Source: Eledone cirrhosa (taxonomy: Eukaryota). Taken from it: DNA of 64,000 nt. Below, in pieces: positions 3,701 to 60,186 of this stretch; within the stretch, counting starts at the first letter, position 1, and each line of letters starts with the position of its first letter. The stretch lies in assembly GCA_964016885.1 (NCBI GenBank), contig OZ024745.1, positions 28,768,001-28,832,000 of the forward strand. Reading direction: 5' to 3'. The position numbers and the translations under genes are program-made. A model generated the notes under the pieces. That model searched no databases. It was not told the DNA's origin and saw nothing but the letters and a program-made list of their open reading frames with translations.

Positions 3701-5545
3701 TGGTGTAGTGTGCTGTAGTGTAGTGTAGTGTGGTGTGGTGTAGTGTAGTGTGGTGTAGTGTAGTGTGGTGTAGTGTGCTGTAGTGTAGTGTTGTGTAGTG
3801 AAGTGTGGTGTAGTGTAGAGCTGTGTGGTGTAGTGTAGTGTGGTGTAGTGAAATGTTGTGTAGTATAGTGTGGTGTAGTGTGGTGTGGTGTAGTGTCGTG
3901 TGTTGTAGTGTAGTGTGGTTTAGTGTAGTGTGGTGTAGTGAAATGTTGTGTAGTATAGTGTGGTGTAGTGTGGTGTGGTGTAGTGTCGTGTGTTGTAGTG
4001 TAGTAGTGGTTTAGTGTAGTGTGGTGTAGTGTAGTGTGGTGTAGTGTGGTGTAGTGTAGTCTAGTTTAGTGCAGTGTGGTGTAGTGTAGTGTGGTGTAGT
4101 GAGTGTTGTGTAGTGTGGTGTGGTGTAGTGTGGTGTAGTGTAATGTTCTGTAGTGAAGTGTGGTGTAGTTTAGTGTGGTGTAGTGTTGTGTAGTGAAGTG
4201 TAGTGTAGTGTGTTGTAGTGTAGTGTATTGTGTAGTGAAGTGTGTTGTAGTGTAGTGTTGTGTAGTGTAGTGTGTGGTGTGGTGTGGTGTGGTGTGGTGT
4301 GGTGTGGTGTGGTGTAGTGTAGTGTAGTGTAGTGTAGTGTAGTGTAGTGTAGTGTAGTGTAGTGTAGTGTGGTGTGATGTAGTGTAGTGTAGTGTAGTGT
4401 AGTGTAGTGTAGTGTAGTGTAGTGTAGTGTAGTGTAGTGTAATGTGGTGTAGTGTGGTGTGGTGTGGTGTAGTGTGGTGTAATGTGGTGTAGTGCAGTCT
4501 AGTGTGGTGTAGTGTACTGCAGTGTAGTGTGGTGTAGTGTAGGGTAGTGTGGTGTAGTGTAGTGTAGTGTGGTGTAGTGTAGTGTTGTGTAGTGAATTGT
4601 GGTGTAGTGTAGTGTTGTGTAGTGAAGTGTAGTGTATTGTGGTGTAGTGTTGGGTAGTATGTTGTAGTATAGAATGGTGAAGTGTATTGTGGTGTAGTGT
4701 TGGGTAGTATGTTGTAGTATAGAATGGTGAAGTGTAGTGTGGTGTAGTGTTGGGTAGTATGTTGTAGTATAGAATGGTGAAGTGTAGTGTGGTGTAGTGT
4801 GGTTTAGTGTGGTGTAGTGTTGGGCAGTATGGTGTAGTATAGAGTGGTTTAATGTAGTGTAGTGTAGTGTGGTGTAGTGTGGTTTAGTGTAGTGTAGTGT
4901 ATTGTGGTGTATTGTGGTTTAGTGTGGTTTAGTGTGATGTAGTGTCGTTTAGTGTAGTGCAGTGTGGTGTGGTGTAGTGTGGTGTGGTGTAGTGTAGTGT
5001 TGTGTAGTCTAGTGTGGTGTAGTATAGTTTGGTGTAGTATAGTATGGTGTAGTGTAGTGTAGTGTAGTGTAGTGTGATGTAGTGAAGTGTAGTGTAGTGT
5101 AGTGTAGTGTAGTGTAATGTGGTGTAGTGTGGTGTAGTGTGGTGTGGTGTAGTGAAGTGTGTGTAGTGTGGTGTCGTGTAGTGAAGTGTGTGTAGTGTAG
5201 TGTGGTGTGGTGTGATTTGGTGTGGTGTAGTGTTGTGTAGTGTAGTGTAGTGTGATGTAGTGAATTGTAGTGTAGTGTAGTGTAGTGTAGTGTAGTGTAG
5301 TGTAGTGTAGTGTAGTGTAGTGTAGTGTAGTGTAATGTGGTGTAGTGTGGTGTAGTGTGGTGTGGTGTAGTGTGGTGTGTGTAGTGTGGTGTCGTGTAGT
5401 GAAGTGTGTGTAGTGTAGTGTGGTGTGGTGTGATTTGGTGTGGTGTAGTGTAGTGTAGTGTAGTGTAGTGTAGTGTAGTGTAGTGTAGTGTAGTGTAGTG
5501 TAGTGTAATGTAGTGTAGTGTAGTGTAGTGTAGTGTGGTGTAGTG
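740..5545. repeat. 4.8-kb pentanucleotide satellite (GTAGT/GTGGT/GCAGT/GCGGT)n
   Basis: Continuous period-5 array. The His/Tyr/Thr ORFs over it are artefacts. Confidence 0.98.
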
Positions 5546-5999
5546 ATGCTGCTACACTGAGATGTTTGATGTAACATACTGAGGGGATAAGAATCTATCT
5601 ACAGATGGTAAATAGCTGAAATATGGAAGACAAGAGAAGAGGGATATTGGAGATAGAGGGTGGAGGAGGATGGGGGCGGTAGTTTGATGGTGGTGGTCAA
5701 ATGTAAGGGAGGTTTGGGTTGGGTGGTATGGAGACAGCTTGAAAGTTGACTCTTTAGGAAACAAGACGGTAGATGGAGCGAATGTGTGGAGGTCTGGTGT
5801 GGTGTGGGGATGGGGTTGGTGAGTGTCTGATCAGTTTGACTGTAGGAAATAAGACTGCATGGATGGAGAGGATTGGAGAGAGGAAGGAGGTGAATGGCAG
5901 ATATGGGTGGCCGCAGTTATGATGTTTGAGAAATTAGTCCATTCAAGTAAGCTTGTGTAGTGCTCATTACATGTGAGTGGAGTACCCGAGAAGCAGGTG

Positions 6000-37613: not shown

Positions 37614-38059
37614 ATGGCGATGTCTTTAGAATTATCTGTGTGGCAGTCTCCCGCTTTATTCCTGCTTCTAATCCTATCTTTGGTTGATGTATTATCGTTG
37701 GGCCATGTTACAGTGACGGCACTTCGTCCAGGCACCGACTTCACGTCTGGAAAGGACAGGGCTGTCGGTGGTGGTCCCTACAAGCCGGAATGGCGATCTC
37801 TGGACACTCGTCCTATACCCACATGGTATGACCAAGCTAAAATCGGGATTTTCTTGCACTGGGGTGTATTTTCAGTGCCCAGCTTCCGTTCCGAATGGTT
37901 CTGGTGGGATCTGAGGGGTAAAAAGGACGCGGCTTGTGTGCAGTTCATGAAGGACAACTACAGACCAGACTTTACTTACCAGGACTTTGCAGCCATGTTT
38001 ACAACAGAATTCTTTAATCCGGACCAGTGGGCGGAAATATTCTCCAAATCCGGCGCCAG
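37614..38059 (+). CDS. FUCA: Alpha-L-fucosidase (GH29) exon 1 of 8, with signal peptide
   Basis: Hydrophobic leader, then [35 protein letters not shown]...SEWFWW. Donor AG|GTTATT, phase 2. Confidence 0.95.
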
Positions 38060-38759
38060 GTTATTATTATTTAAATGTTTATTTTCTTAATCTCTCTTAT
38101 AAATGTTATTTTACACAAAAACCCCCACACTATATCGTCCTGTACCATCTTTAATGTTTCCTTAATGTAAGGGTTGGGTGGCTAATACAGAAAGCATTAT
38201 TAATATTATTGCCTTTACGTTCTGAGTTCAAATCCCGCCGAGGTTAACTTTGCCATTCATCCTTAAAATAAAATACCTGTAATGCACTGAGTCGATCTAA
38301 TCGACTTTCCTCTCGCTCCCTATAATTGCTGGCCTTGTGCTTAAAGAAGAAACTACTATTATTCATTCTTTGTTGCTATTGTTTAACCATTGACCAGCCT
38401 CTGATCTTGTGAAACCACGTTGTGGCAGACATCCTAACCATGGCCATCACCTGGAACTACATTATTTAATATATCCTTCTTTATTTAAGACCACAACATG
38501 TGATTTAAGTGAGGGTTTTTTTTGTTTTTTTTCAAGAGCTTTTCTTAAGTAATAATTGTTTCTTTTATTATACAAAGCATATAAATAAATTTACAGTAGA
38601 ATAATATAACAAATATGTTTTAAATATATACATAAATAATATTACAAATGCTTAGATAACATTATAAATTGCTCGCGATTGTTTCAGAAGGATATATTCT
38701 TTTAATGTACCAATATTGAAGAAAATGTAAACCGAGCCAACACCAGAGCAAAAGACAGC

Positions 38760-38862
38760 AGCGTCGCGAGGAGTACCGGGCAACCTCTCTAATGATATTT
38801 GAGGCAAGCCAGCACACTCGCAGCGTTGCCACGGGTGATGGCGAGGCTAATGCGCTGTAACG
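38760..38862 (-). mobile_element. CRE-like LINE C-terminal fragment
   Basis: Reverse strand translates LQRISLAITRGNAASVLACL. Confidence 0.6.
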
Positions 38863-39467
38863 TTTTATTTTACTACTATTTCTAGCAGGTGTCTTGTTGT
38901 TTAGCCTCGAGGAGATGTGGTTGCTATTACTAGCAGTGGTCTCGCACGTAAGATGTAGGTGTTGCTGTTAATGTTTAACCACAGGTCAGCCTCTGGTCTT
39001 GTCGAAACACGTCATGGCAGACATCCCAACCATGACCACCCCATTTTACACGCCAGAAACTATATATAGTTCTTTATTTAAGACGGAGGGGCGGAAATCT
39101 GTACTAATTATTCATCGAGCTTCCTCTGTTGAGTAACTTAATATATATACCCCCCCCCCCCCCCCCATCACTCTCACTAAGCGTGAAACTAATACTGTTT
39201 GTAACTTGTACTCCTGCGTTGTTTTTTGTATTCCGATATATATATATCGGAATACAAAAAACAACAAAATTAGTACAGATTTCCGCCCCTCCGTCTTAGA
39301 TAAAGAACTATATATAGTTTCTGGCGTTTGAATTATATATAATTCGTTTTTGAATTGTTTTGCGAGATTTCTTATCTGAAAACGTGTGTTGAAACAGACG
39401 TTTTCAGATAAGAAATCTCGCAACGTTGAAACACACGTTTTCAGTTAAGAAATCTCGCAAAACGAAT

Positions 39468-39503
<36 letters not shown>

Positions 39504-40125
39504 ACGTGTGTTGAAACAGATATTGTTATACTTTGGGAGGGTCATGTTGCCAATAAAAACACGCGCACCTGTTGATTTTAACTTCAATTTAGTATTTCTC
39601 CTATGCTACGGGCTGTTTCACCTATGTATGTTATATTCTTATTCCTATATTGTCCTTAGTACATCTTATACTATATACTACGTTCCTAGTTTTGCAGTTC
39701 GTTTGTGGGCTTAGCTTGCAGACTATGCATTTCCTATCTGCACAGGGGGATCTTTGAAATGGGTGTTTTGCTAATTGGGGTTTTTATGGGAATACCTGGT
39801 CTTTCAACTATCTTAATATTTAATTTGAGCTTGTCTAAATCTATAAGTTAGTTCGCCTCTAGGGGTTGTCTTTATGAACATTACACTCTGGTATTTATTG
39901 CTATCATACCATGAGTTTATTTTATTAGCATTATTCCTAATTCTTTCTATTCTGTTTCAAAATGTGCTCCTATACATGGGGTTCTAGCTCCTTTATATAC
40001 TCTGATCTTGTTTCTCTGATTGTAGCCAGAGAACTGCATGCTGTGGATGAAGTAACGTATGTGTCTCTCTAATTCTTTGGGGTTGTACATGCGGGACATA
40101 TTCCTCATCACTCTTATATATATAC

Positions 40126-40168
<43 letters not shown>

Positions 40169-40195
40169 TATGTATATATATATATATATATATAC

Positions 40196-41248
40196 GTGCT
40201 CTGGTGCAATAAGTAGCAGCAAGTGCCCACAAACTACTAGCTCTTTCAATTGCGCAGAGGGTTCTATAGAAATAGTGGACAGCTTCCGTTACCTGGGCGA
40301 TAAAATCAGCAGTGGGGGAGGGTGCTCTGAAAGTACTGTAGCTAGAGTCAGAACTGGTTGGAAAAAGTTCAGAGAGCTTATACCACTATTAGCTGCTAAA
40401 GGGTTCTCACTAAAAATGAAAGGCAGGTTGTACGATGCCTGCATACGAACAGCAATGCTGCATGGCAGTGAGACCTGGGCATTGTGTGCAGAGGATATAC
40501 GCAGACTAGAGAGGAACGAAGCTTGCATGCTCCGCTGGATGTGTAACAGTAATATACGTGAACGGCAAAGCATAAACGAACTAAGGAATAAATTAGAGAT
40601 AAGAGGGATCAGATGTTGTTTACTCGAGAGAAGGCTACGTTGGTATGGACACGTGATGCGCATGAAAGTCGATAGCTGTATAACAAAGTGCAGGGCAATA
40701 AAGATAGACGGTAGTCACGGAATAGGCAGACCTAGAAAAACCTGGGACGAGCTGATAAACTCCGACATCACACACTTACACCTCTCCAAGACAATGTCAC
40801 TGGACCGAGACCTTTGGCGGTACTCAGTAACAGAGAAGACCCGCCTTACCTAAATATATAGTAAAACCTACTCCAGCCAGTAGGCATCTCTAACAAATAC
40901 ACCCCGTCCCACCACCCCCACCCGATCCACACCACCCCGTTCTATGTAAAGTTATGTTGGTGCCGCGCCATCGAGGCCGAAACAAATGAGATCGTGTAGG
41001 TGTCACGACAAAAAAACACACAGTCCACGCTGTAATGTGGCCGTGTAGGCAACACGGTAAAAACCTCCCAGACCCACACTGTAAATGTGGTTGGTGTTAG
41101 GAAGGGCATCCAACTGTAGAAAACCTGCCAGACAGTCCTATGCGAGCAAGACAATCACTCTTGCCTCAAGTGGGACTACCCCCGTCCAAACCCATGCAAG
41201 CGTGGAACACGGACGTTAAACGTTGATGATGATGATGATGATGATGAT
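40196..41248 (+). mobile_element. 5'-truncated young RTE copy
   Basis: Nearly identical to 46302-47293 and ends in (GAT)n. Confidence 0.95.
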
Positions 41249-43527
<2,279 letters not shown>

Positions 43528-43559
43528 CAATCATTACCTTCTATCTAGCTACCCAACAT

Positions 43560-46500
43560 CCCTCCCTCCCGCCCCCACGCACCACCATTGCTATTACGTG
43601 GACCAATCATAAGCCAGCCCCCACGCATCACCAGTATTATTATTACGCGGACCAATCATAAGCCAGAGGCCTATACTATCGCTTGCCTGGTTGCCTTTCG
43701 ATATATGATGTATGGATGGACTGTGGAATCCTGGAGAGTGGAGGAGAGAGAGAAAAATCTGGACGCTCAGCGACAATGCCAAAGATAAAGATAAAGATAA
43801 AGACAAATTCACCTCGTGGACAAGAATGCGAGCATTCCTCATTGTTTCGACCGCAGACGGCTAACATAACCCCATCGCCCCCCGCCCCCCACCGCCCCCA
43901 ACCCCCAAACGCAATCCAAAACTTCAGAGTTGGTACCATAAATGTAGGCACCCTAAAGGGTCGCGGTAACGAGGTTGTAGAAATGCTTGAACGTAAGGAG
44001 GTCGATGTTTGTTGTATTCAAGAGACCAGGTGGAGGGGTGGGTCTGCTAGATTCATTGAGGGTAAAAAACGATGTTATAAGCTTTTCTGGGTGGGAAACG
44101 ACGATGGGCTGGGTGGAGTAGGAATCATGGTAGCAGAAAAGTGGGCAGATAAGATAATAGACGTAAATAGAGTGAACGACAGAATAATTAAAATACGACT
44201 TGTCCTCAATAGAACTACGGTGACAGTAATATCTGCGTACGCACCCCAATCCGGACTGCCCGGCACTATAAAAGACAGATTCTATGAGACACTGATGCTA
44301 ACTACCTCCCAAATATCCGACAGTGACTATATAATTATTGCAGGCGACCTAAATGGTCACGTTGGACAACATTGTGACGGCTACGACGAAATCCATGGAG
44401 GCTATGGGTTTGGTACTAGAAATGAGGAAGGCTCCAGAATCCTGGAATTCTGTGATGCAAATAACCTAACTATCTGTAACACTAACTTCAAAAAACGTGA
44501 CAATCACCTGATCACCTATAGATCTGGGGAACACACAAGCCAGGTAGATTATATCCTTACCAGAAGACGTGACAAGAGTGTCTGTTGTAAACACTAAATC
44601 CCTCCCCCATGAAGAATGCACCTCCCAACATAGACTGATAATTAGCGACCTCATAGTCAGGACGAGACGTACTCGACAGCAGAAGAGTACTATCCTCAGG
44701 AGAAAAATATGGAAGCTAAAGGACCCCACAGCCAGGAATAAATTTCAAAGCATATTACTTGATGCTTTCGACAGTAAGGAAGAACATTTAGAGTCGGACA
44801 ATATAGAGGGAGAGTGGAAATTTCTGAAAGCAAACCTGCTGTTGGCGACAGACGAAGTCTGTGGCTGGAGCAGGCCTGTAGGCAGGAGGAGAGTAACATG
44901 GTGGTGGAACAGTAAGGTGGAGGGGTCAATTAAGGCCAAAAAGCAGGCTTGGAAAGTATGGCGGGATGGGGGAAGTAGAGAAGACTATCAAGTGGCCAGG
45001 AGGGAAGCTAGGAGACAAGTGTACTTAGCAAGAAGGGAAGCTGAGGAAAGAAAGTTCAAGCATGTTCTACAACGCGATGACCAAAAACGTGAGGTGTTCA
45101 GGATTGCTAAGCAATGCGTCAAGGAAAACCGTGATATTGTCGGGGAGAAGTGTGTACTTAACGATGATGGCATACTTGCCATCACCGACGCTGATAAGAA
45201 GGTAGCTTGGAAGTGTCACTATGAAAGGCTACTAAATGAGGAGAATAAATGGGAGAAAGACAGTCTCCCCCATATCGACCCAATAGAGGGACCAGCAGTG
45301 TTAGTCGAGGGGAGTATAATAAGTAAGGCAATCAAGGATATGAAGACGGGTAAGGCGGCTGGGCCTTCGGAAATAGTTGCTGAGATGCTGAAGGCATCTG
45401 GCACGGTGGGACACACCATGGTCACCCGCATAGTTAACCAAGTCGTACAGAATGGGGCTGTTCCGAAGGACTGGCATAGCAGCATCATCGTTAACTGTTA
45501 TAAGGGTAAAGGAGACGCCCTAGATAGGAGTAACTATAGAGGCATTAAATTAATCGACCAGGTCATGAAGGTCACGGAAAAAGTAATAGCACAACTAATC
45601 AGAGAGAGAATTGACCTAGATGAAATGCAGTTCGGGTTTGTGTCAGGCAAAAATACCACAGACGCTCTTTTCATTGTACGACAACTACAGGAGAAGTACC
45701 TAGCTAAAGGTAAACCCCTCTACTTAGCTTTTGTCGACTTGGAGAAAGCCTTCGACAGAGTCCCCCGCTCCATTATCTGGTGGGCTCTTAGAAAACTAGG
45801 CGTTGACGAATGGCTTGTGAGAGCTATACAAGCCATGTATAAAGAAACAGTCAGCAAGGTTAGAATTAACAACGAATATAGTGAAGAGTTTAGCGTAAAA
45901 GTTGGCATCCATCAGGGCTCTGTTCTCAGCCCCCTACTATTTATTATTGCCCTTCAGGCTATAACAGAGGAGTTCAAGACCGGCTGCCCATGGGAACTCC
46001 TATACGCAGATGATCTAACGCTCATAGCTGAATCAACGGCCGAGCTAGAGAAGAAATTCCAAACATGGAAGCACGGCCTAGAATCAAAAGGCCTTAAAAT
46101 TAACCTGGCTAAGACTAAAGTTCTAGTTTGTAAGAAAGAAAATAAGGCGGCGGTCCCCTCCGGGAAGTGGCCATGCTCAGAGTGTAGGAAAGGCGTAGGT
46201 AGAAACTCCATTTTGTGTCCCAAATGCAAAGTATGGGTGCATAAAAGATGTAGTGGGATCACAGGTAAGCTAACTAAGAACATAGATTTTACATGTGGCC
46301 GGTGCTCTGGTGCAATAAGTAGCAGCAAGTGCCCACAAAATACTAGCTCTTTCAACTGCGCAGAGGGTTCTATAGAAATAGTGGACAGCTTCCGTTACCT
46401 GGGTGACAAAATCAGCAGTGGGGGAGGGTGCTCTGAAAGTACAGTAGCTAGAGTCAGAACTGGGTGGAAAAAGTTCAGAGAGCTCATACCACTATTAGCC

Positions 46501-47293
46501 GCTAAAGGGTTCTCCCTAAAAATGAAAGGCAGGTTGTATGATGCCTGCATACAAACAGCAATGTTGCACGGCAGTGAGACCTGGGCATTGTGTGCAGAGG
46601 ATATACGCAGACTAGAGAGAAACGAAGCTTGCATGCTCCGCTGGATGTGTAATAGTAATATACGTGAACGGCAAAGCATAAACAAACTAAGGAAAAAATT
46701 AGAAATAAGAGGGATCAGATGTTGTTTACTCGAGAGAAGGCTACGTTGGTATGGACACGTGATGCGCATGAAAGTCGATAGCTGTATAACAAAGTGCAGG
46801 GCAATAAAGATAGACGGTAGCCACGGAATAGGCAGACCTAGAAAAACCTGGGACGAGCTGATAAATTCCGACCTCACACACTTACACCTCACCAAGACAA
46901 TGTCACTGGACCGAGACCTTTGGCGGTACTCAGTAATAGAGAAGACCCGCCTTACCTAAATACAAAGTAAAACCTACTACAGTCAGTAGGCATCTCTAAC
47001 AAAATACACCCCCGTCCCACCACCCCCACCCCATCCACACTGCCCCTTTCAATGTAAAGTTATGTTGGTGCCACAACATCCAGGCCAAAACAAATGAGAT
47101 CGTGTAGGTGTCACGTAAAAAAAACACAGTTCACGCTGTAATGTGGCCATGTAGGCAACACGGTAAAAACCTCCCAGCCCCACACTGTAAATGTGGTTGG
47201 TGTTAGGAAGGGCATCCAGCTGTAGAAAACCCTCCGTCCAAACCCATGCAAGCATGGAACACGGACGTTAAACGATGATGATGATGATGATGA
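43560..47293 (+). mobile_element. Near full-length RTE-clade LINE: APE endonuclease + RT with an inserted PHD-like finger, one +1 frameshift at about 44580
   Basis: ATG at 43776. GTINVGTL, CCIQETRW, SAYAPQ, GDLNGHVG, SQHRLI, FVDLEKAFD, HQGSVLSP, YADD, C4HC3 finger, stop at 46959, 3' UTR and (GAT)n tail. The 5' UTR has two ~48-bp repeats containing CCAAT. Confidence 0.95.
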
Positions 47294-47316
47294 TATATAT
47301 ATATATATGTATATAT

Positions 47317-47665
47317 CATCATCATCATTTTACGTCCACTTTTCCCTGCTTGCAAGGGTGGGACGGGAACTGATTCTGGCTTGATTTCTACAGCTGGATG
47401 CCTTTCCTAACACCACACCAACCTCATTTACAGTGAAAGCTGGGTGCTTTTTTCCCCGCATCCGAAAAACGTGTCCACCAATGCGACCTCCACTGTCCAA
47501 TCTCCCTGTACATCTACTGCATACATACCCCTCCCTACCCGCCAGCTTGCCCGCCACATCTCCCGTGCACCCAGGATCCGCACTGTGTGCACCCTATAGA
47601 ACCTATGCCAGCTCCCTTTCCGCACATCGAACACGGCCACCACCCCTGACGGAACCAGAGTTCTG

Positions 47666-47696
<31 letters not shown>

Positions 47697-48330
47697 CAAC
47701 ACACACACCAGCGCCCCCAACCCACCAACACCCCAGTCCCAGCCAAGCTCGCTCTCAGTCCTCTTGCTTCCAACTGCTGTTTCCATAGCCAGAATTTATT
47801 CTCTAGCTCCTCCACTGATTCTGCTACAAGAACCAGACAGTCAGCATAGAGAAGCTCCCATGGACAGCCAGTCTTAAACTCCTCTGTCACGGCCCGGAGG
47901 ACTACAATGAACAAGAGTGGGCCGAGGACCGAACCCCGATGCACTCCCACTCGCGTCCGGAATTCCTCACTAAACTCCACCCCCACCCTACCTCACCAAT
48001 AGCACCTCTGTACAAAGTCCGCACTGTACCACAAGCCATCCCCCAACACCCAATCCCTCCAGGGACCACCAGATGACAGACCAGGGCACCCCACCAAAGG
48101 CCCTCTCTAGGTCAACAAAGGCCAAGCATAGGGGCCCACCTTTCTCCAAGAACCTCTCCCGCAATTGTCTCACCAAGAAGAGGGTATCCGCTGCACTCCC
48201 CCCAGGCACAAAACCAAACTACATCCCACCCAGCTTGACCCCTTCTCCAACCAATTGTGCCAATATCCTTTCCGCCACTTTCACAACCCGATCCATCAGT
48301 TTTATACCCCCATAATCGCTCCTCTCCTCA
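47317..48330 (-). mobile_element. RTE RT/PHD fragment with heavy A-to-G change on its sense strand, joined to a 3' tail
   Basis: Aligns to 45525-46310 but reads e.g. FVDLERAFGGVP, HRGSVLGP, LAGTGVL and WVHGRCGG. Confidence 0.9.
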
Positions 48331-48464
48331 TTTCTACAGCTGAGTAAACTGGAGCAATGTGAAATAAAGTGTCTTGCTCAAGGAAACAACACATTACCCG
48401 GTCTGAGAATTGAACTCACAACCTTTCGATTGCAAGGCCAATGCTCTAACCACTAAGCCATGTG

Positions 48465-48466
<2 letters not shown>
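48326..48466 (-). mobile_element. tRNA-derived CORE-type SINE 5' part (second copy about 42452-42572)
   Basis: Reverse strand GGCTTAGTGGTTAGAGC...GAGTTCAATTC...TTGTTTCCTTGAGCAAGACACTTTATTTCAC. Confidence 0.75.
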
Positions 48467-48531
<65 letters not shown>

Positions 48532-49093
48532 GCACGCGCACGCGCACACGCACACGCACACGCACACAGAGAGAGAGAGAGAACGCATGTATGTACATAT
48601 GTATATTTTCCATCTACCAATTTCCACACACAACACAATTGGTCTACCACCAGAGGTTATTTACTGAGTGTAGAACAAAACACCTGCCCCACCTCAACCA
48701 ACCCCCAACATGCCACACAGGAGGCACTGGAGCACAAAACCAGGTGGTTACCAAAAGTGAACTCCTTGACCACACAGCCATGCCTGGCTAAACCTATTGA
48801 CACTAACATTAATCTACTCCACCTCCTCTCTCTCTCTCACTCCATTTCCTCCTCCTCTCATCCTGTCTTTGGTTGTTTCTGTTTGCCTTAAGTACACACT
48901 GGAAAAGGAGGAGGAGAAGAGCCAAAAGGGGAAGGAGCTTGTTTCTTTCTTGAATATGTAATTACCTGTTGTTCTCACTTCCTCTGTGGTTGTATGTGTA
49001 TGTGCATGTATATATATATGTGTGTGTGTGTTTATATATATATATATATATATGTGTGTATGTATATATACACACACACACATACACACTCAC

Positions 49094-49126
<33 letters not shown>

Positions 49127-49249
49127 GAAAGAGTGAAGAATAACATGGTCAACAGTACAAAAAAGGGGGTTTTATTTACAGTCTTAACAATTGTTTCACT
49201 GATTAAGTTGTCTAAAATTTACTGAGCGCTTGAAGTTGTGCCATAAATA

Positions 49250-49528
49250 TCATCATCATCATCATCGTTTAACGTCCATGTTCCACGCTTGCATGGGTTT
49301 GGACGGGAGTTTTCTCACTTGAAGCAAGAGTGGTTGTCATTGCTCGCATAGGACTGTCTGGCGGGTTTTCTACAGCTGGATGCCCTTCCTAACACCAACC
49401 ACATTTACAGTGTGGGGCTGGGAGGTTTTTACCGTGTTGCCTACACGGCCACATTACAGCGTGGACTGTGTGTTTCTTTGTCGTGACACCTACACGATCT
49501 CATTTGTTTCAGCCTGGATGTTGTGGCA

Positions 49529-49533
<5 letters not shown>
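49250..49533 (-). mobile_element. RTE 3' UTR/tail-only insertion
   Basis: Reverse complement of 40955-41248 and 47063-47293. Confidence 0.9.
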
Positions 49534-49562
<29 letters not shown>

Positions 49563-49819
49563 TTAAAACAATGAAATAAAAAATCAAGTCATTAGAGATA
49601 TACTTCACTGCTTTACGATTGTTTCTAGATGATGATAATACGTTGTAGCTATACTCCGTTATTGATCTATGTAAGGTTAGTTACAAACTATCAAATAAAG
49701 AGAATATTTACTTACATGCATATCACCAGCTGGTTTCAAAAGCAATAATAATTTTTTCAATAATAATTTTATTCTTTCAAAGGGTCATGACTTCAACTAA
49801 AGTATTTATTTATAACCAT

Positions 49820-51935
49820 ATAATAATAATGAAATTATTGTGTAAAGTGCTCAGGTGCACTACAACTCGTCAAAGGTGTATGTATAGTACATAGAATAAT
49901 ATACAAATGTCAGGGAAGTGAATAGTGTATGAGTCATGGTATACATGTGTGTATGTGTATGGAGGGGGAACATTAGCTGTAGTGTTGGCGGATCTCGGGT
50001 AGCATGGATGCCTTAAAGGATGCAGTGTCTCGATAGCTAACAACTGATGCAGGTAGTTTGTTCCATGCTTCAGCAACTCTGAGCGTGAAAAAATGTTTCC
50101 GAAAGTCATGGGAACTAGTGCTGTTTTCTGACTTTGTGGGCATGTCCACGTGTGTTAGACACATGGAAATCAAAAAGGTACTCAGGGTTGTTGTTGGCAA
50201 GATAGTTAACAATTTTGTGGGTGTTTACCAAGTCAGTTGCCAGGCGTCGGAGCTTCAATGTATCCATGCCCAGGGAAGCAAGGCACTCAGAATATGGTAG
50301 ATGCCTGATGAAGGGTATTCGCTTGGTTGCACGTCTCTGAACAGTTTCCAGGCAGTCAATGTTCTGAGCAAGATAGGGGTTCCAGACTGGTGATGCAAAT
50401 TCTAAGTGTGGCCGCACCATAGCCATGTACAGCCTTAAATAGATATCTGGAGAGCGGCTGACAAAGGTCTTGCTGAGTGATGCTAAACACCCTCGGCCCT
50501 CATGACAATTTTAGAGACGTGCTTCGTCTAGCGCAAATCGCTGCTGACCGTAATGCCCAGGTCACGTTCACAAGAAGACTTCTTGATATTAGTGCTGTGG
50601 AGGGAGTATGTGGACGCTGGGTTTTTACTCCCAAAATGCATGGTGGTGCACTTGTCCACAGCTAGCTTGAGTCGCCAGTCTGAGATCCATTGTTGCATTG
50701 TGTCCAGGTCAGACTGCAAGCAAGATCTATAATGTTCAGGATCTGTCCTTTTTATCTCAAGGTACAGCTTGATGTCATCTGCGTACTTTAGTACTGTGGC
50801 ATTCTTTAAGTTGGCATCTATGTCATTAATATATGCCACAAACAAAAGGGGGTCAAGAACAGATCCCTGTGGTACACCAGATGACATCTCATATGGTGAG
50901 GAATGCTGTCCCAGAACCGTGACTACCTCTCTTCGACTGAGAATGAAGGACTTCAACCAGTTAAAAAGATCATCCTTCACACCCATCGCAGAGAGTTTTG
51001 CCATAAGCCTTTTGTGTGGCACAGAATTGAAGGCTTTCGCAAAGTCAAGGTAAACAACATCCACCCATGAGCCGCCATCAGTGATCCGGGTGATGTCCTC
51101 AAGAAACTCTATAAGTTGATCACAGCAGCTGGAGTTGGGGATAAATCCAAATTGCAAGGGCCGGATAAGACTGTGAGAGCTCCAGAAGTTCCAAAGTGTT
51201 TCTCTGACACAGGATTCCATCAGTTTGGCGATGCAACTAGTAAGACTGACTGGACGATAGTTCACAGGTGATGTGCGGTCACCCTTTTTGAACAGAGGAA
51301 TGACACTAGCAGTTTTCCACTGTTCTGGAGTAGCGCTGTTGTTCAGACAGAATTGGAAGAAGCGTGATAACTGGTGCAGAAGGAAGTACCCACCACGTTT
51401 AAGAAGCAGGTACGTAACACCATCAAGACCAGGAGAGGCATGGTTGTGTTTATTTTTTAGGTGACGTCGCAGCATTGCAGGTGTAAATTCCATGGTTGTA
51501 ATAGAGTCCGGTGTCATAGGTGGTGGAGATGGTACACTCTGGTCTTCAATAGTGAAAATGCCTGCATAACATTCAGCAATGAGCTCTGCGCATTCCTTGG
51601 GGTCGTCAGTAACCTGGCTTGTGTGGGGATTGCGAAGAGGACCAACTGGAGAGTGAGGCCTCTGCTTTGAGTGAACATACTTCCAGAACACCTTACTGTC
51701 AGGGCTGGTTGCTATGTGCTGCTCAAATTGAAGCACTACCTTTTTTGTCACCTGTTTGAGGTGGTTGGACGATCTATTTCGCCTCTTCCAATTAATGTCT
51801 GATTTGTGAAGTTTGTACTCACGTTCAGCATTGCGCCGTTCTTTTCTGGCAAGACGGACTGCTGCAGTCTCCCAAATTGCACTTTTGAGATGTTTTTTCC
51901 CGCTTACGTGGCACCGATGCTGCACATGCTGTCCA
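49820..51935 (-). mobile_element. CR1-clade LINE, 5'-truncated, with a 465-aa RT ORF remnant
   Basis: ASPGLDG, NYRPVSLTS, YLDFAKAF, GVPQGSVL, YADD and an (ATT)n tail. Confidence 0.92.
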
Positions 51936-52019
51936 TATTGAGCTCAATGAAAAAAACAATTTGATTTGTTAGTTCTTCAACTACCTCCAAATAAGGACAT
52001 AATACTAACATACTACTAA

Positions 52020-53025
52020 TCTATATATATAAAACTGTGGTTGTCTGTCTGTCTATCGATTTTTGGCACACATCTCCTCTTAGAATCTCTGACGGAATTG
52101 CACCGAAATTGCTATACTTGTACATTGAGCCCTAGCGAAGACATCGGAAAAAAAATATTTCAAATTGACCCACCCTATGTGACGAAATCGAATATAATGT
52201 ATCGATTTTTGAGCGTAAGTTATCAGTTATTTCCTTTTGTTCTGTTTACATTGAGCGTCTTACGTAAAAAATTACGCTGGCTTTCTCAGCGTTTAAAATG
52301 ACATTAACACAATACACGAACAGTTGTCGAGCCAGCAAAATATTGACCTGCAAAATTCATCAGTTCGAACACTAAGCTTCCGTTTTGCTTCATTTCCATT
52401 TAAAAGCATTTTAAAACAATATTTTTACTTGAAAACAAGTCTATTTAAAGACTACGTAAAACAAGCAAATATTTCGTCGTTAGGCGTGCAGACAGACAGT
52501 CGTACAGACAGACAGTCGTGCAGAGAGGTGATATACGCGTGCAGACAGACAGTCGTGCAGAGAGGTGATATAGGCGTGCAGAGAGGTGATATAGGCGTGC
52601 AGACAGACAGTCGTGCAGAGAGGTGATATAGGCGTGCAGACAGACAGTCGTGCAGAGAGGTGATATCGGCGTGCAGACAGACAGTTGTGCAGAGAGGTGA
52701 TATAGGCGTGCAGACAGACATAACTGGTAATTTGGTTACGCTAATGTTTTTCTCTGCGTTGCAGTGTTTACATTTTCGATCTTTGTTAATAAATAACCAG
52801 TGCAGTTTTTATCCCCAGCATCCTCTTTTGTTATAACATTCGGGTTATCGTTATGTTTTCTTAACTTCATAAGGCATATTGTTGGTTGAGGGAATATTAA
52901 TCAAAAACACCACATGCAAGTCTGCACAGTAGACACTACAGTTTTTAAGCCAAAAAAGAAACTTAACATTGTAACTTTAACACAGCTACTGAGCGACCCC
53001 GAGCAACGCCGGGCTTTACTGCTAG
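52020..53025 (+). mobile_element. Non-autonomous Helitron with an internal 37-bp minisatellite (52483-52720)
   Basis: A|TCTATATATATAAAA start, subterminal hairpin CCCG-AGCAACGC-CGGG, CTAG|T end and no TSD. Confidence 0.8.
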
Positions 53026-53846
53026 TTCTGAATAAAATTATTATTGCTTTTGAAAACAGCTGGTGATATGCATGTAAGTAAATATTCTCTTTATTTGATA
53101 GTTTGTAACTAACCTTACATAGATCAATAACCGAGTATAGCTACAATGTATTATCATCATCTAGAAACGATCTAATGATTTGATTTTTTATTTCATTGTT
53201 TTATTATATCATGACTCTGTTTTCCTTTTAGTGTTTTATTGTTTTCTGATATTTATCTTAACCTACAATATTTTCAACATGTGGATTACATCGAGTTCTT
53301 CATGCAGAATAGACCCCACAACTTACTGTGGTTACCTCTGTGTATATATATATAGTGAAAAATGGAACGGGAACAAAACAGAGAGGCAGTACGAACAAAG
53401 GTTTATTAGTTTCACGCTCTTGAGAGTGACACACACACATACAAATATATACACACACATACAAATATATACTCACACACACACACATGCAAATATATAC
53501 TCGTACACACACACACACACATACAAATATATACACATACACACACATGTACTTGTAATCCTGTGTTTGTTATTTGTATCTTACCCTACTCCAAATATTG
53601 AGTACTTTCTAAACAGTTGTTTGTGTTTATGGCTGCTGAGTGTGTGTGTGTTTGATAAAACTAGGGCCCTCTCATTAAAATAGCCAAGAAACCTCATAGA
53701 AGGCCAGCTTAAACTTACATAGGTGTGAGCTGCAAATTTCATTTTATATATTTGTCTTTTCAAAATCCTTTCATCACAACTTGTGACCTTATCAGTGACT
53801 TCACCCTCTGTGTCAATGCTAACTCTTTTATGCATCTCCTTGTCAG

Positions 53847-53953
53847 GTATGTTGTTCTAACCAGTAAACACCATGAAGGTTACACCAACTGGCCATCCAA
53901 ACACTCCTGGAATTGGAACTCACAATCTGTGGGACCACATCGTGATCTTGTTG
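53847..53953 (+). CDS. FUCA: Alpha-L-fucosidase exon 2
   Basis: CAG| [17 protein letters not shown]...GPHRDLV |GTGAGT, phases 2/1. Confidence 0.95.
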
Positions 53954-53995
53954 GTGAGTTTTATAGTTGTCATAACCTACATCTTGCTCATTGCT

Positions 53996-54505
53996 ATTAT
54001 CATCATCATCATCACCACTACTACTACCACCACCACCACTACTATCACCATCACCACCACCACCACTACTATCACCATCACCACCACCACCACTACTATC
54101 ACCATCACCACCACTACTATCATCACCACCACCACCACCACTACTATCATCATCATCATCATCACCACCACTACTATCACCACCACTACTATCACCACCA
54201 CCACTACTATCATCATCATCACCACCACCACTACTACCACCATCACCACCACCACCACTACTATCATCATCATCATCACCACCACTACTACCACCATCAC
54301 CACCACCACCACTACTATCATCACCACCACCACCACCACTACTATCATCATCATCATCATCACCACCACTACTATCACCACCACTACTATCACCACCACC
54401 ACTACTATCATCATCATCATCACCACCACTACTATCACCATCACCACCACCACCACCACTACTATCACCATCACCACCACCACCACTACTATCATCATCA
54501 TCATT
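53996..54505. repeat. (CAC/CAT/TAC)n trinucleotide array in fucosidase intron 2
   Basis: Directly visible, lying between canonical splice sites. Confidence 0.95.
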
Positions 54506-54608
54506 GCCATCAGCATGTGATTCATAATCCCTATATTACTTACCTCCTTCCAATACACAACAAAATAACTCCCTGCTACCCCTATGTCCACTCTTCTTCT
54601 GTTCACAG

Positions 54609-54739
54609 GTGAGCTGGCAGCTTCCATCAGGAAAAACACCCCCATTCATTTTGGACTTTACCATTCCCTCTTTGAATGGTTCCACCCTCTCTATCTCCAG
54701 GACAAGGCCAACAACTTTACAAGTCAAAGTTTTGTCAGA
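54609..54739 (+). CDS. FUCA: Alpha-L-fucosidase exon 3
   Basis: GELAASIRK...[18 protein letters not shown] |GTAAGT, phases 1/0. Confidence 0.95.
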
Positions 54740-55135
54740 GTAAGTTCATGCCACTGTCTGTCTGTCTGTCTATTTGTCTACCTGTCTGTCTGTCTGTCTA
54801 TTTGTCTACCTGTCTATCTCTCTGCTTCTTTGTGTATCTGTGTCTGTCCCTTTGTCTTTTGGCCTGTCTGTTTGTCTCTCTCTCTCTCTCTATCTTTATC
54901 TTTAGTTTGTTTCATTCTGTATGTATAATATTGAAAACATACACACACACATACATATATATATATTTATAAATTTATATTATTGTGCCCTTAACATCCG
55001 TGTAACCCTGTTGTTGCTGTACTATAAACTCTTGTGTACTCCCAGGGTTGTCGTTACTGTGCCCTAAAAACCTGTGTACCCCTGGTGTTGTTACTGTGCC
55101 CTAAACATCTGTGTACCCCTGTTTATCTACCCCAG

Positions 55136-55269
55136 GAGAAAACCCAACCAGAGTTGTATGAGCTGGTGATGAAGTACAAACCTGATGTGATATGGTCTGA
55201 TGGTGATTGGGAAGCCCCAGACACTTACTGGAATTCTACAGATTTTCTTGCCTGGCTCTATAATGACAG
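55136..55269 (+). CDS. FUCA: Alpha-L-fucosidase exon 4, with the catalytic nucleophile Asp in IWSDG
   Basis: [11 protein letters not shown]...IWSDGDW...FLAWLYND |GTAGGT, phases 0/2. Confidence 0.95.
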
Positions 55270-55571
55270 GTAGGTAACGCTCCCTCTAAGCTGCATAGGT
55301 ATGCAGCCATACAGTTGCTCTAGTGATGCTGCACACTGACGTGCACATGAGAATGCTGTACAGTATACATCAGAATGTTGCTGCACATCCAAATGATGTC
55401 AGGATTTTGTATTTGTTCAACTTTTTATGTTCTGAGCTCAAATTCTGCTGAGGTTAACTTTACCTTTCATCCTTCTTGTCAATATAATAAAATACCTCTC
55501 CTCTCTCCCTAGCGCACCTTTTCTCTCTCTCTCCCTCCCTATAATTATCACACACTCTATCTCTCTTTCAG

Positions 55572-55669
55572 TCCAGTGAAAGATACTATTGTAGTTAATG
55601 ATCGCTGGGGAAAAGGAATTTCTTGTCACCATGGTGACTTCTACACCTGCCAAGATAGATACAACCCAG
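55572..55669 (+). CDS. FUCA: Alpha-L-fucosidase exon 5
   Basis: [14 protein letters not shown]...DRYNP |GTGAGT, phases 2/1. Confidence 0.95.
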
Positions 55670-55692
55670 GTGAGTGCAAAATAACAAACAGG

Positions 55693-55723
<31 letters not shown>

Positions 55724-56089
55724 ATATATATGTGTATATATATGTATGTATACATATGTATGTGTATGTAGGTATATATATATATATGTATGTGTATATA
55801 TATATATATATATATGTGTGTGTATATATATATGTGTGTGTATATATATATGTGTGTGTATATATATATGTATGTGTATATATATATATATATATGTGTG
55901 TATATATATATGTTTGTGTGTATATATATATATATATATATGTGTATATATATATATATATACACACATACATATATATATACATATTATATACATATTT
56001 ATGTCAGGTACATACATATATATATACATATTTATGTCAGGTCACCAGTTGGTGCTACTGGTAACATGTATCCCAGTACAACCTGTCTC

Positions 56090-56644
56090 ATGGTCGGGTC
56101 GTTGGCGACTAAACTGGCAACCCCACCAAGGTTTCTTGGTGAGGAGGGTGACTTTGGACATCCTGCAGGACTAAAAACAAAACCTGTCAAAGGGCACAGG
56201 AGCTCTTAAGAGTCAATGGCCATCCAAAATCACCGGGAGAGATGACCCCTTAGCCTTTGTCAAGGCAGAATTCTAGGAGAAGGAAAACTCTGATATAACA
56301 CCTGCAACCCTGATGGTATCCAATGATGTTGACTTGTTCTTCTTTTTGGTAAATATCATCTTGGTTAAGAGAGTGGGACTGGCTTTGTGCAGTGCCTTTG
56401 CTCACTATAAAAGCTTCACGGCACAGGCATTGCTTTATATCTGGAGATCTCTCTGCACTTGTCGTCACATGGTACCATGGGCCCAGCACTATGTGTCAGT
56501 AATTGTCACAAGTGTAGTGTTTGTACCAGAGTTTTCAAGTCGCTGGCTGGACTAAAAAGTCACACTCGTTCAGCGCATCGGTAGGGGTTCTCCTACATGG
56601 ATATAAAGTAGTGGCCGTACTCGAAAACGAGTTGGCAGCCACCA
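56090..56644 (+). mobile_element. Short non-autonomous RTE derivative (5' UTR joined to 3' end)
   Basis: The 5' end matches the start of the RTE at 33951 (minus). The 3' end matches 36148-36342. No coding core lies between. Confidence 0.65.
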
Positions 56645-57244
56645 TATGTGTATATATATGTATGTGTATATATATATATGTGTGTGTATATATATGTATG
56701 TGTATATATATATATATATATATATGTGTGTATATATATGTATGTGTATATATATATATATATGTGTGTGTATATATGTGTATATATGTATGTGTATATA
56801 TATATATATATGTGTGTGTATATATATGTATGTGTATATATATATATATATGTGTGTATATATATGTATGTGTATATATATATATATGTGTGTATATATA
56901 TGTATGTGTATATATATATATATGTGTGTATATATATGTATGTGTATATATATATATATATATGTGTATATATATATATATATATGTGTATATATATATA
57001 TATGTGTATATATATATATGTGTATATATATATATGTGTATATATATATATGTGTATATATATATGTATATATATATGTATATATATATGTGTATATATA
57101 TATGTATATATATATATATGTGTATATATATATGTATATATATATATGTGTATATATATATGTATATATATATATATGTATATATATATATGTATATATA
57201 TATGTGTATATATATATGTGTATATATATGTATGTGTATGTATA

Positions 57245-58842
57245 TAATAATAATAATAATAATAATGAAATTATTGTGTACAGTGCTCAGGTGCACTACA
57301 ACTCATCAAAGGTGCATGTATAGTACATAGAATAATGTACAAATGTCAGGAAAATGAACAGTGTATGAGTCATGATATAATAACAATAACAATAATGAAA
57401 TATTGTGTACAGTGCCCAGGTGCACCACAACTCATCAAAAAAGTGCATGTACAGTACATAGGGCAGTGCACAAACATCAGTAAAATGAACAGTGCACGAG
57501 TCATGATACACACATGTGTGCATGTGTATGGAAGGGGTACATCAGGTGTAGTTTTGGCGTATTTCAGGAAGCATGAGTGTCTTAAAGGATGCAGTGTCTC
57601 GGCAGCTAACAATTGACGCAGGCAGTTTGTTCCATGCTTCAGCAACTCTGAGCGTGAAAAAATGTCTGCGAAAGTCATGGGAGCTGTGCTGTTTTCTTAT
57701 CTTGTAGGCATGTCCACGTGTGTTAGACACATGGAGATCAAAGAGGCGCTCAGGGTTGCAGTTGGCGAGATGGTTAAAAACTTTGTGGGTATTCACCAAG
57801 TCCATTGCCAGACGTCGGAGCTTCAATGAATCCATGCCCAGGGAAGCAAGGCGTTCAGAGTATGGTAGGTGTCTGATGGAGGGTATGCGCTTGGTTGCAC
57901 GTCTCTGAACAGTTTCCAGGAGGTCAATGTTCCGAGCAAGATAGGGGTTCCAGACTGATGATGCGAATTCCAAGTGTGGTCGCACCATAGCTGTATACAG
58001 TTTTAAATAGATGGCTGGAGAGCGGCTAACAAAGGTCTTGCTGAGTGATGCCAAGACACCCTCGGCCTTCTTGACAAGCTTAGAGACATGCTTTGTCCAA
58101 CGCAAATCGTTGCTGACAGTAATGCCCAGGTCACGTTCACAAGAGGACTTTTTGATGTCAGTGTTGTGGAGGGAGTATGTGGACGCTGGATTTTTCCTTC
58201 CAAAATGCATGGTGGTACACTTGTCCACAGCCAGCTTCAGTTGCCAGTCTGTGATCCTTGCTGCATTGTGTCCAGGTCTGATTGTAGGAAAGAGTTGTAA
58301 ATTTCAGGATCAGTCCTTTTGATTTCAAGGTACAGCTTGATGTCATCTGCATATTTTAGTACAGTGGCATTCTGTAAGTTGGCATCTATGTCATTAATAT
58401 ATGCCACAAACAAAAGAGGACCAAGAACAGATCCCTGTGGTACACCAGATGACATCTCATATGGTGAAGAATGCTGTCCTAGAACCGTGACTACTTCCTT
58501 TCGGCTGAGAATGAAGGATTTCAGCCAGTCGAAAAGATCATCCCTCACACCCATTGCAGAGAGTTTTGCCATAAGTCTTTTGTGTGGCACAGAATTAAAA
58601 GCCTTAGCAAAGTCAAGGTAAACAACATCCACCCATTAGCCGCTGTCAGTGATCCGGGTGATGTCCTCAAGGAACTCGATAAGCTGATCACAGCAGCTGG
58701 AGTTAGGGATAAATCCAAACTGTGAGGGCCGGATGAGGCTGTGAGAGCTCCAGAAGTTCCAAAGTGTTTCTCTGACACAGGATTCCATCAGTTTGGCCAT
58801 ACAGCTAGTAAGACTGACTGGACGATAGTTGACAGGTGACAT
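57245..58842 (-). mobile_element. CR1-clade LINE 3' part with a duplicated 3' terminus
   Basis: Same RT motifs as 49820-51935. Two tandem 3' ends at about 57245 and 57378. Confidence 0.92.
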
Positions 58843-58871
58843 GTGATATGTGGTATGTATATATATGTATG

Positions 58872-58904
<33 letters not shown>

Positions 58905-59212
58905 ACATGTGTATGTATATGTATGTTTATATATCATCATCATCATCATCATCATCGTTTAACGTCCCTGTTCCACGTTTGCATGGGTTTGGACATGGGT
59001 TTATACATATATATGGGTTTATACATATATATATGTATATCATCATCATCATCGTTTTATGTCCATTCTTCCATGTTAGCATGAGTTAGACGGAATATAT
59101 ATAAATGCACCTTACCAAAAATATTAGTGGATTATTCCATTTTAATCATATCTATATATATAATCTGAAAACTTTCCTGATTTTATCACCTTGCAAATTT
59201 CTTCCATTACAG

Positions 59213-59345
59213 GTAAATTAATTACTCACAAATGGGAGAATGCTATGAGTATAGATAAATACTCGTGGGGTTACAGACGTCGTGCCCAATACTCTGACTA
59301 TTATTCTATTGAAGCCCTCATATCTCTCATGGCTGAGACAATCAG
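59213..59345 (+). CDS. FUCA: Alpha-L-fucosidase exon 6
   Basis: GKLITHKWENAMSIDKYSWGYRR |GTTTGT, phases 1/2. Confidence 0.95.
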
Positions 59346-59581
59346 GTTTGTTTGTCATTTCTTTTCTTATACTATATACTAATATAAAGAATGGTGCGCT
59401 CATGCCCAAAGATGCGATAAAATAGGGTAAAGACCCTGAATCTGTTGACTGATGTGTATATTTTATGCAGCTACAGTTACTGTGCCGCTTTTTTTCTCCA
59501 GTAAAATGGCCCTTTTTTTAAACAAACATTTATTAACAACACATATCTGAATGATTGACAAACATCACACAAATAACCTAG

Positions 59582-59866
59582 TAACAACTTATCCATTTGT
59601 AGGTTATTGATTTCTTTGGGGCATTGTCCCCATAAACTTGCTCCAGAGCGTCAATGATTTGGTTGCTCTGCCACCCTAGCTTCAACATGAATTTGATGTT
59701 TTGATGGAGGCCATGTTGCTCGAGTGGGTGCTGACTTTCAACTGGCGCCGCAGTGTTGCAATATGCATTTAAGTGTTCATGTTAGAACATGTTATGACAA
59801 GTTAAAATCCCTGCGTATGATTTTTTAGCTATGATTATTCCACAAACCTTTTGAAGCCCCCTTGTA
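59582..59866 (-). mobile_element. Mariner (irritans/Hsmar2-like) 5' fragment
   Basis: TA-CAAGGGGGCTTCAAAAGG terminus and NIKFMLKLGWQSNQIIDALEQVYGDNAPKKSITYKWI on the minus strand. Confidence 0.75.
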
Positions 59867-60015
59867 CTCAGGAAAGTACTGTCTGTGAAGGTCCTTGTTG
59901 AGACCTGCCAGACAGTAGAAAATACTGAATGATATTTACTGTAGAAACCAACAATTTGTAATTAGTATAACTGTTGATGTTGTTGTTACTGTTGATTATG
60001 TGACTTTATTCACAG

Positions 60016-60186
60016 CTGTGGAGGGAACTTACTCATGAATATTGGTCCCACACATGATGGGCGTATTGATCCCCTGTTTGAAGAACGGTTGCTCCAGATG
60101 GGGCAGTGGCTCAAGGTGAACGGAGAGGCCATCTATGCCAGCAAACCTTGGACCCATCAGAACGACACATACACCAAGAAAGTTTG
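60016..60186 (+). CDS. FUCA: Alpha-L-fucosidase exon 7
   Basis: [16 protein letters not shown]...[18 protein letters not shown] |GTAAGA, phases 2/2. Confidence 0.95.

Follow-up and report, generated by a model that had tools for sequence, protein, structure and literature searches.

Organization of the locus

We analyzed a stretch of 64,000 nucleotides of the Eledone cirrhosa genome (contig OZ024745.1, positions 28,768,001 to 28,832,000), here called the window. Exon matches revealed an alpha-L-fucosidase gene on its plus strand, and a fragment of a LINE lies antisense within a fucosidase intron, flanked by both halves of a SINE in the same orientation as the fragment. The features of the locus are as follows:

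37773..60127, plus strand: alpha-L-fucosidase host gene, with exon matches at 37773-38069, 55133-55270, and 60011-60127
43662..47000, plus strand: neighboring LINE of another subfamily, with APE endonuclease, reverse transcriptase (RT), and PHD-like finger (Pfam)
47317..47453, minus strand: SINE 3' part with (ATG)n tail; 0/38 A changed in 47335-47453
47455..48327, minus strand: internal LINE fragment from the RT domain to the PHD-like finger (here called the edited fragment), with about 120 sense-strand A>G changes
47666..47719, minus strand: simple repeat of G/GT without any A (17 G and some 36 nt more), substituting for an 11-nt A-rich stretch
47752..47812, minus strand: unedited patch inside the edited fragment, with 24 consecutive A unchanged (permutation p=1e-4)
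48328..48466, minus strand: SINE 5' head with A- and B-box-like motifs recognized by eye; 0/33 A changed

The edited fragment is 870 bases long, lacks both the 5' and the 3' end of the LINE, and reads G at 44% of its sense-strand A positions. A first-pass annotation had placed it at 47480..48330; its limits are here corrected to 47455-48327. Its description of the copy as dead on arrival stands in the weaker sense that both element ends are absent, which holds regardless of editing.

The family of the fragment has the hallmarks of an APE-type LINE, i.e., APE endonuclease and RT domains (detected by Pfam on the homologous neighbor) and (ATG)n tails, and the RTE label given in the first-pass annotation fits its anatomy, making it a putative RTE element. 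Exact matches to an A-free 19-nt motif indicate about 3,500 copies in the genome, with a coverage that drops toward the 5' end, in line with variable 5' truncation. The neighboring LINE belongs to a different, young subfamily (98-99% identity, 2697 candidates) and is itself unedited when compared with 14 sisters (A>G 2/974, T>C 5/624). Its single open reading frame (43662-46956) is broken by one frameshift near 44550-44590, and its 3' part occurs as a 94% identical direct duplicate (40196-41148 and 46302-47254) with no substitution skew. Other features in the window are two SINE-type tails facing each other across a short TA repeat (47052-47455), neither of them edited where tested, and a C-poor, G/T-rich 4.8-kb tandem array with a GC skew of >0.9 (741-5548). 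Three alpha-L-fucosidase loci are present in the genome, on contigs C5, C10, and C12.

Substitution classes and neighboring bases of the edited fragment

The first-pass annotation had compared the fragment with the inverted neighboring LINE, cautioning that the latter might be of a different subfamily. This caution was justified, as the neighbor shares only about 70% identity with an unedited copy of the fragment's family, and same-family copies were used as the reference instead. Against the neighbor, we counted A>G at 122/289, G>A at 18/216, and T>C at 25/206 positions. When the column majority of 29 same-subfamily copies served as the reference, the proposed strand-specific A-to-G load became even clearer, with A>G at 121/272 positions and sense-strand T>C, already described as few, at 2/201. 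The remaining transitions were likewise infrequent (G>A 5/226, C>T 7/133), and transversions numbered six in total, including one A>C and one A>T. Scoring with 144 aligned hits gave A>G at 118/269 and T>C at 2/198. The two sister fragments, said to be free of the bias, indeed showed balanced classes against the neighboring LINE (A>G, G>A, and T>C counts of 48, 40, and 27 at 25.9 kb and of 28, 26, and 18 at 34 kb), and no skew of the A>G type was seen in any other repeat pair compared within the window.

Ordinary causes of such a pattern would be a G-rich subfamily, GC-biased conversion, or skewed dNTP pools during reverse transcription; a raised GC content, and nothing further, speaks for them. 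A search of the 3.0-Gb genome yielded closest relatives of 84-86% identity, the best other match thus being 86% identical, and 71 of the 121 edited positions are G in 0/29 same-subfamily copies. Among the candidates scored, the fragment therefore does not represent a distinct subfamily sharing these G's. GC-biased conversion would raise T>C equally, in contrast to the count given above. An imbalance of dNTP pools acts by way of wobble pairing to favor G>A and U>C, and it gives no avoidance of a 5' G as described below. We consider these causes exceedingly improbable. Without A>G, the divergence of the fragment is 2.1%, which falls inside the range of the family (median 1.2%, upper quartile 2.9%).

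The A>G changes alter 63 of 262 alignable codons and are distributed alike over the three codon positions (42/92, 34/82, and 41/91). Most of the amino acid changes quoted in the first-pass annotation are accounted for by A>G; exceptions are the K>R change in LQEK>LRER, which is a subfamily difference (R is found in the sister copy as well), and the final part of VHKRCSG>VHGRCGG, which falls on an 8-nt deletion. Editing is patchy along the fragment, as illustrated by the unedited patch at 47752..47812. The G/GT repeat at 47666-47719 is private to the fragment, since no other aligned copy has a longer segment at this position, and its origin may lie in the editing of an A/TA-rich stretch or in slippage following editing.

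The frequency of A>G depended on the 5' neighbor (p=3e-5), with T at 36/59 (61%), A at 43/78 (55%), C at 22/54 (41%), and G at 20/79 (25%). At the level of triplets, TAG was edited at 18/25 and GAG at 4/28 sites. The same order was found for ten other edited copies of the family (see below) when pooled (T 0.26, A 0.23, C 0.14, G 0.06; p=1e-24), while background A>G in 99 unedited copies was nearly flat, at 9-14 per 1000 across the four contexts. This 5' preference fits the published ADAR neighbor rule (PMC8586724; PMC2873906). The ADAR context predicted earlier was thus recovered for the depletion of G 5' of edited A; the accompanying enrichment of G on the 3' side did not reach significance in the fragment (49/100 vs 72/170 for the other bases, p=0.31) and was significant in the ten pooled copies (odds ratio 1.47, p=6e-4). 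An APOBEC-type signature is not seen, with sense G>A at just 5/226.

These features of the sequence point to ADAR as the candidate enzyme. Adenosine deaminase domains are encoded at several loci of the genome, and one encoded ADAR2 is 95% identical to that of Octopus vulgaris, which also assigns the animal to the octopods. Cephalopod editing is aimed at repeats in all tissues, and the report describing this widespread repeat editing in coleoids calls a defense against transposons unexplored (PMC9068888).

A transcript of the locus itself could also have been the substrate: an insertion that was originally unedited would later have been transcribed, its transcript would have folded on the inverted neighbor and been edited, and RNA-templated repair would have overwritten the locus. 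The inverted LINE lies 500 nt away and spans the same domain, and patchy editing is compatible with an imperfect duplex. However, the neighbor is unedited and only about 70% alike, and the adjoining SINE tail, with an inverted tail about 20 nt away, shows 0/38 A changed. Since the fucosidase exons lie on the plus strand and the fragment on the minus strand, editing of host pre-mRNA would read as T>C on the LINE sense strand; the polarity is that of the LINE's own RNA, as the first-pass annotation had argued. Moreover, no inverted family member was present near eight of nine other edited copies (3-8 kb examined around each), and near one edited copy (L158) a second family piece was found on the same strand only. 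We regard this course of events as very unlikely.

The SINE-LINE-SINE composite and the genomic status of its G's

The SINE head at 48328..48466 stops right where intact copies continue into a hairpin, and the LINE fragment substitutes for about 60 nt of the SINE, the halves of intact copies being most often 60 nt apart. This composite structure had escaped the first-pass annotation. A target deletion of 18 nt, read from the SINE of locus L003, was rejected because that SINE is a deletion variant and the usual gap is 60 nt. The last ~45 nt of the SINE 3' part match the 3' end of the fragment's LINE family, and judging from these matching ends, the RNAs of both elements likely use the same RT. 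The edited fragment itself ends about 600 nt short of the tail of the LINE family and is followed by SINE sequence; it thus lacks the LINE's own 3' end, which a canonical target-primed insertion of the LINE itself would carry. Microhomology at the LINE-SINE junctions amounts to at most about one base. The composite is flanked by (AG)n and (TA)n microsatellites, and because both flanks are of this kind, no target-site duplication is readable around it. A second locus with the 5' junction was not found among 40 candidates scored out of 1320. As to other SINE copies, arrays of 400-900 nt, in which an internal unit of about 49 nt is repeated in tandem, lie between head and tail at three loci (L062, L063, and L033), and at the first of these two array-bearing SINEs are arranged head to head.

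Across the two SINE halves, 0/71 A were changed (27 and 26 copies compared), in contrast to 118/269 in the LINE fragment (p=7e-16). Unedited SINE halves beside an edited LINE mean that the composite was made by joining either two RNAs or an RNA with a DNA site, and the sharp boundary between edited and unedited sequence shows that editing preceded joining.

The untouched SINE halves also bear on deamination at the DNA level. A DNA adenine deaminase, or ADAR acting on an RNA:DNA hybrid, that targeted the second (sense) DNA strand during integration would equally yield pure sense A>G, and ADAR activity on RNA:DNA hybrids is known. In such a hybrid, however, the DNA strand is the first-strand cDNA, and its deamination would be read as T>C, which prevailed in 0/223 loci of a survey that under-sampled T>C copies. 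Both SINE halves of the same insertion were left unchanged, and we know of no DNA-level adenine deaminase of such a kind in molluscs. We regard deamination of DNA as very unlikely.

The first-pass annotation had called for confirmation of the G's in raw genomic DNA reads, and part of them were recovered in contigs of public runs. A 321-nt contig of the public run X18 equals 47906-48226 without difference, including 43 edited sites, and a contig of run X19 equals 47424-47524 without difference, including nine edited sites and the LINE-SINE junction. Together, these exact contigs cover 52 of 117 edited sites, with 65 of 117 outside both contigs, and come from runs of unrecorded type (X18-X20, sequenced to a depth of 2.4-5 from one sample, which may be that used for the assembly). 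In these runs, 31-mers of the unedited family reach a depth of ~22,000 and unique pieces one of 2-5; genomic DNA would give such a ratio, which is close to the number of copies. RAD-seq runs of other samples (X21, X22) and a run of another organism (X1) gave no long cover and were uninformative either way.

Furthermore, CpGs created by editing show decay. In ten edited copies, CA>TG was found at 7/84 sites compared with CA>TA at 8/752 (p=3e-4), a rate like that of native CpGs (CG>TG 32/321), and the seven observed CA>TG changes compare with 1.6 expected from unedited copies (p=0.001). This test, which is post hoc, pooled, and based on seven events (1/20 in the edited fragment alone), supports that the edited G's have since aged as DNA. 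If RNA-derived or erroneous reads had been built into the assembly, the G's would be an artifact; what speaks for this is that exact contigs cover just part of the sites and that the type of the runs is not on record. Against it stand the inclusion of the LINE-SINE junction in these contigs, the 31-mer depth, the CpG decay, and eleven independent patterns on different chromosomes, which make an artifact extremely improbable.

Further edited copies and the proposed route

A survey of the LINE family comprised 251 loci, each aligned over 300 or more columns, corresponding to 223 distinct loci after merging of exact overlaps. Eleven of the 223, the fragment included, had an excess of A>G relative to T>C (p<0.001), in a set enriched for A>G-edited copies, as most loci came from edited queries. 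The reverse excess was found in none of the 223 even at p<0.01, the sampling being biased against T>C copies because the queries were either A>G-edited or a T-rich motif (nine T). Loads in the edited copies ranged from 25/687 to 124/817, and the rate of the fragment was the highest. The copies sit on different chromosomes, and the fragment has 0-2 non-A>G changes in common with each of eight others, so that the edited copies represent separate events. Sites edited in the fragment were edited more often in the ten others within every 5' class (after T, 55/159 vs 19/110). Locus L033, which is part of the edited set, passes the binomial test and fails the cluster test, and L055 (p=9e-3) was excluded. 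T>C clusters at L154, L157, L119, and L074, as well as an A>G cluster at L172, were gone once the microsatellite tail was excluded.

We also examined a sample selected blind to A, consisting of the first 100 motif matches listed (contig 1, first 87 Mb). One of the 100 was edited (95% CI 0.03-5.4%), namely L158, and only mildly; none was edited heavily. By the same filter, 3/100 had G>A clusters, at least partly at CpG-rich spots. Editing of surviving LINE copies is rare, and this low frequency bounds its share in shaping them. It also weakens the earlier suggestion that editing may restrict retrotransposons. Internal deletions are not a mark of edited copies (2/10 edited vs 28/100 sampled), and the 3' end is also absent in 12/100 sampled copies.

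The edited fragment is very probably derived from an ADAR-hyper-edited LINE RNA that was reverse-transcribed into germline DNA. A sense LINE transcript would have paired with antisense RNA from one of the thousands of copies. Such an intermolecular duplex is suggested because the LINE has no long internal inverted repeat (none of >22 nt was found within a LINE copy); neither a nearby inverted partner of the fragment's own family nor its source locus was found, and no copy carries more than 5 of its 20 non-A>G changes. As the signature suggests, ADAR would then have deaminated A to inosine in patches. By established chemistry, RT places C opposite inosine, which would give G on the sense strand, and the cDNA would have become joined to SINE sequence on both sides, as seen in the composite. 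For this joining, we lean slightly toward two template switches while the LINE's own enzyme was retrotransposing a SINE; nearly as likely, the cDNA was captured where an already inserted SINE had broken, with a loss of about 60 nt. Subsequent ageing of the G's as DNA is supported by the CpG decay. At least ten other edited copies, which have normal 3' tails, would have arisen by this route, roughly 1% of the family.

More tentatively, we propose that ADAR could be a germ-line mutagen by way of octopod retrotransposition. RT would have passed from SINE RNA to a broken, inosine-rich LINE RNA and back, RNA fragments without tails would be written into the genome, and the G/GT repeat would be a microsatellite made by editing.

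Clustered sense A>G through edited RNA and reverse transcription is also described for ADAR-linked hypermutated retroviruses, i.e., RAV-1, avian leukosis virus, and HTLV-2/STLV-3 in culture (PMC8586724). Those are exogenous and found in somatic or cultured cells, whereas the present case concerns a non-LTR element that sits in a chromosome-scale assembly, shows signs of ageing as DNA, and has at least 11 independent copies. In vertebrate genomes, LTR retrotransposons edited by APOBEC likewise preserve strand-specific, motif-biased hypermutation that was introduced during retrotransposition, but there G>A arises by C deamination of cDNA, whereas here A>G would have arisen at the RNA level, in a LINE of an invertebrate; as described, that screen covered LTR elements only and used invertebrates as a negative control (PMC4866542). 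In tripartite chimeric retroelements attributed to double template switching, different RNAs, LINE and SINE included, are fused in one insertion (PMC2104539); in the present composite, both outer pieces are halves of a single SINE, with a hyper-edited piece between them. Restriction of human L1 by ADAR1 in cell culture was described as editing independent, with no edits in >2.5 kb of L1 RNA (PMC5224506). ADAR would meet LINE RNA in both settings, and here the edits themselves are the record. A 2016 review considered it undetermined whether ADAR has a mutational role in the evolution of retrotransposons (PMC4982230), and the available text of two further reports (PMC12988792, PMC13282606) makes no mention of editing or ADAR. 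A full-text search, which included few subscription journals, found no publication that describes A>G loads of the ADAR type in genomic copies of LINEs.

RNA editing is usually taken as transient, and edited LINE copies would constitute a datable, heritable record of it. They would document that LINE RNA undergoes editing, either in the germ line or early in embryogenesis, and that it can still be reverse-transcribed despite nearly half of its A being inosine. Also, they would let past ADAR activity and specificity be measured from genome sequence alone and allow a test of the proposal that editing mutates retrotransposons (PMC9068888, PMC4982230).

Two of the other edited copies, L004 (C22:12.77 Mb; 78/425 A>G) and L034 (C3:299.03 Mb; 124/817 A>G), have normal 3' tails and harbor internal deletions of ~130 nt and ~205 nt, respectively, each with 14-17 extra bases. 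No daughters of either copy were found among 40 candidates scored for each, the best being 91% and 85-86% identical. In L004, editing ends about 80 nt before the tail. Furthermore, a zone corresponding to positions 2444-2640 of L007 is almost free of editing in seven of the nine edited copies covering that stretch, hinting at a common structure or at protection by protein.
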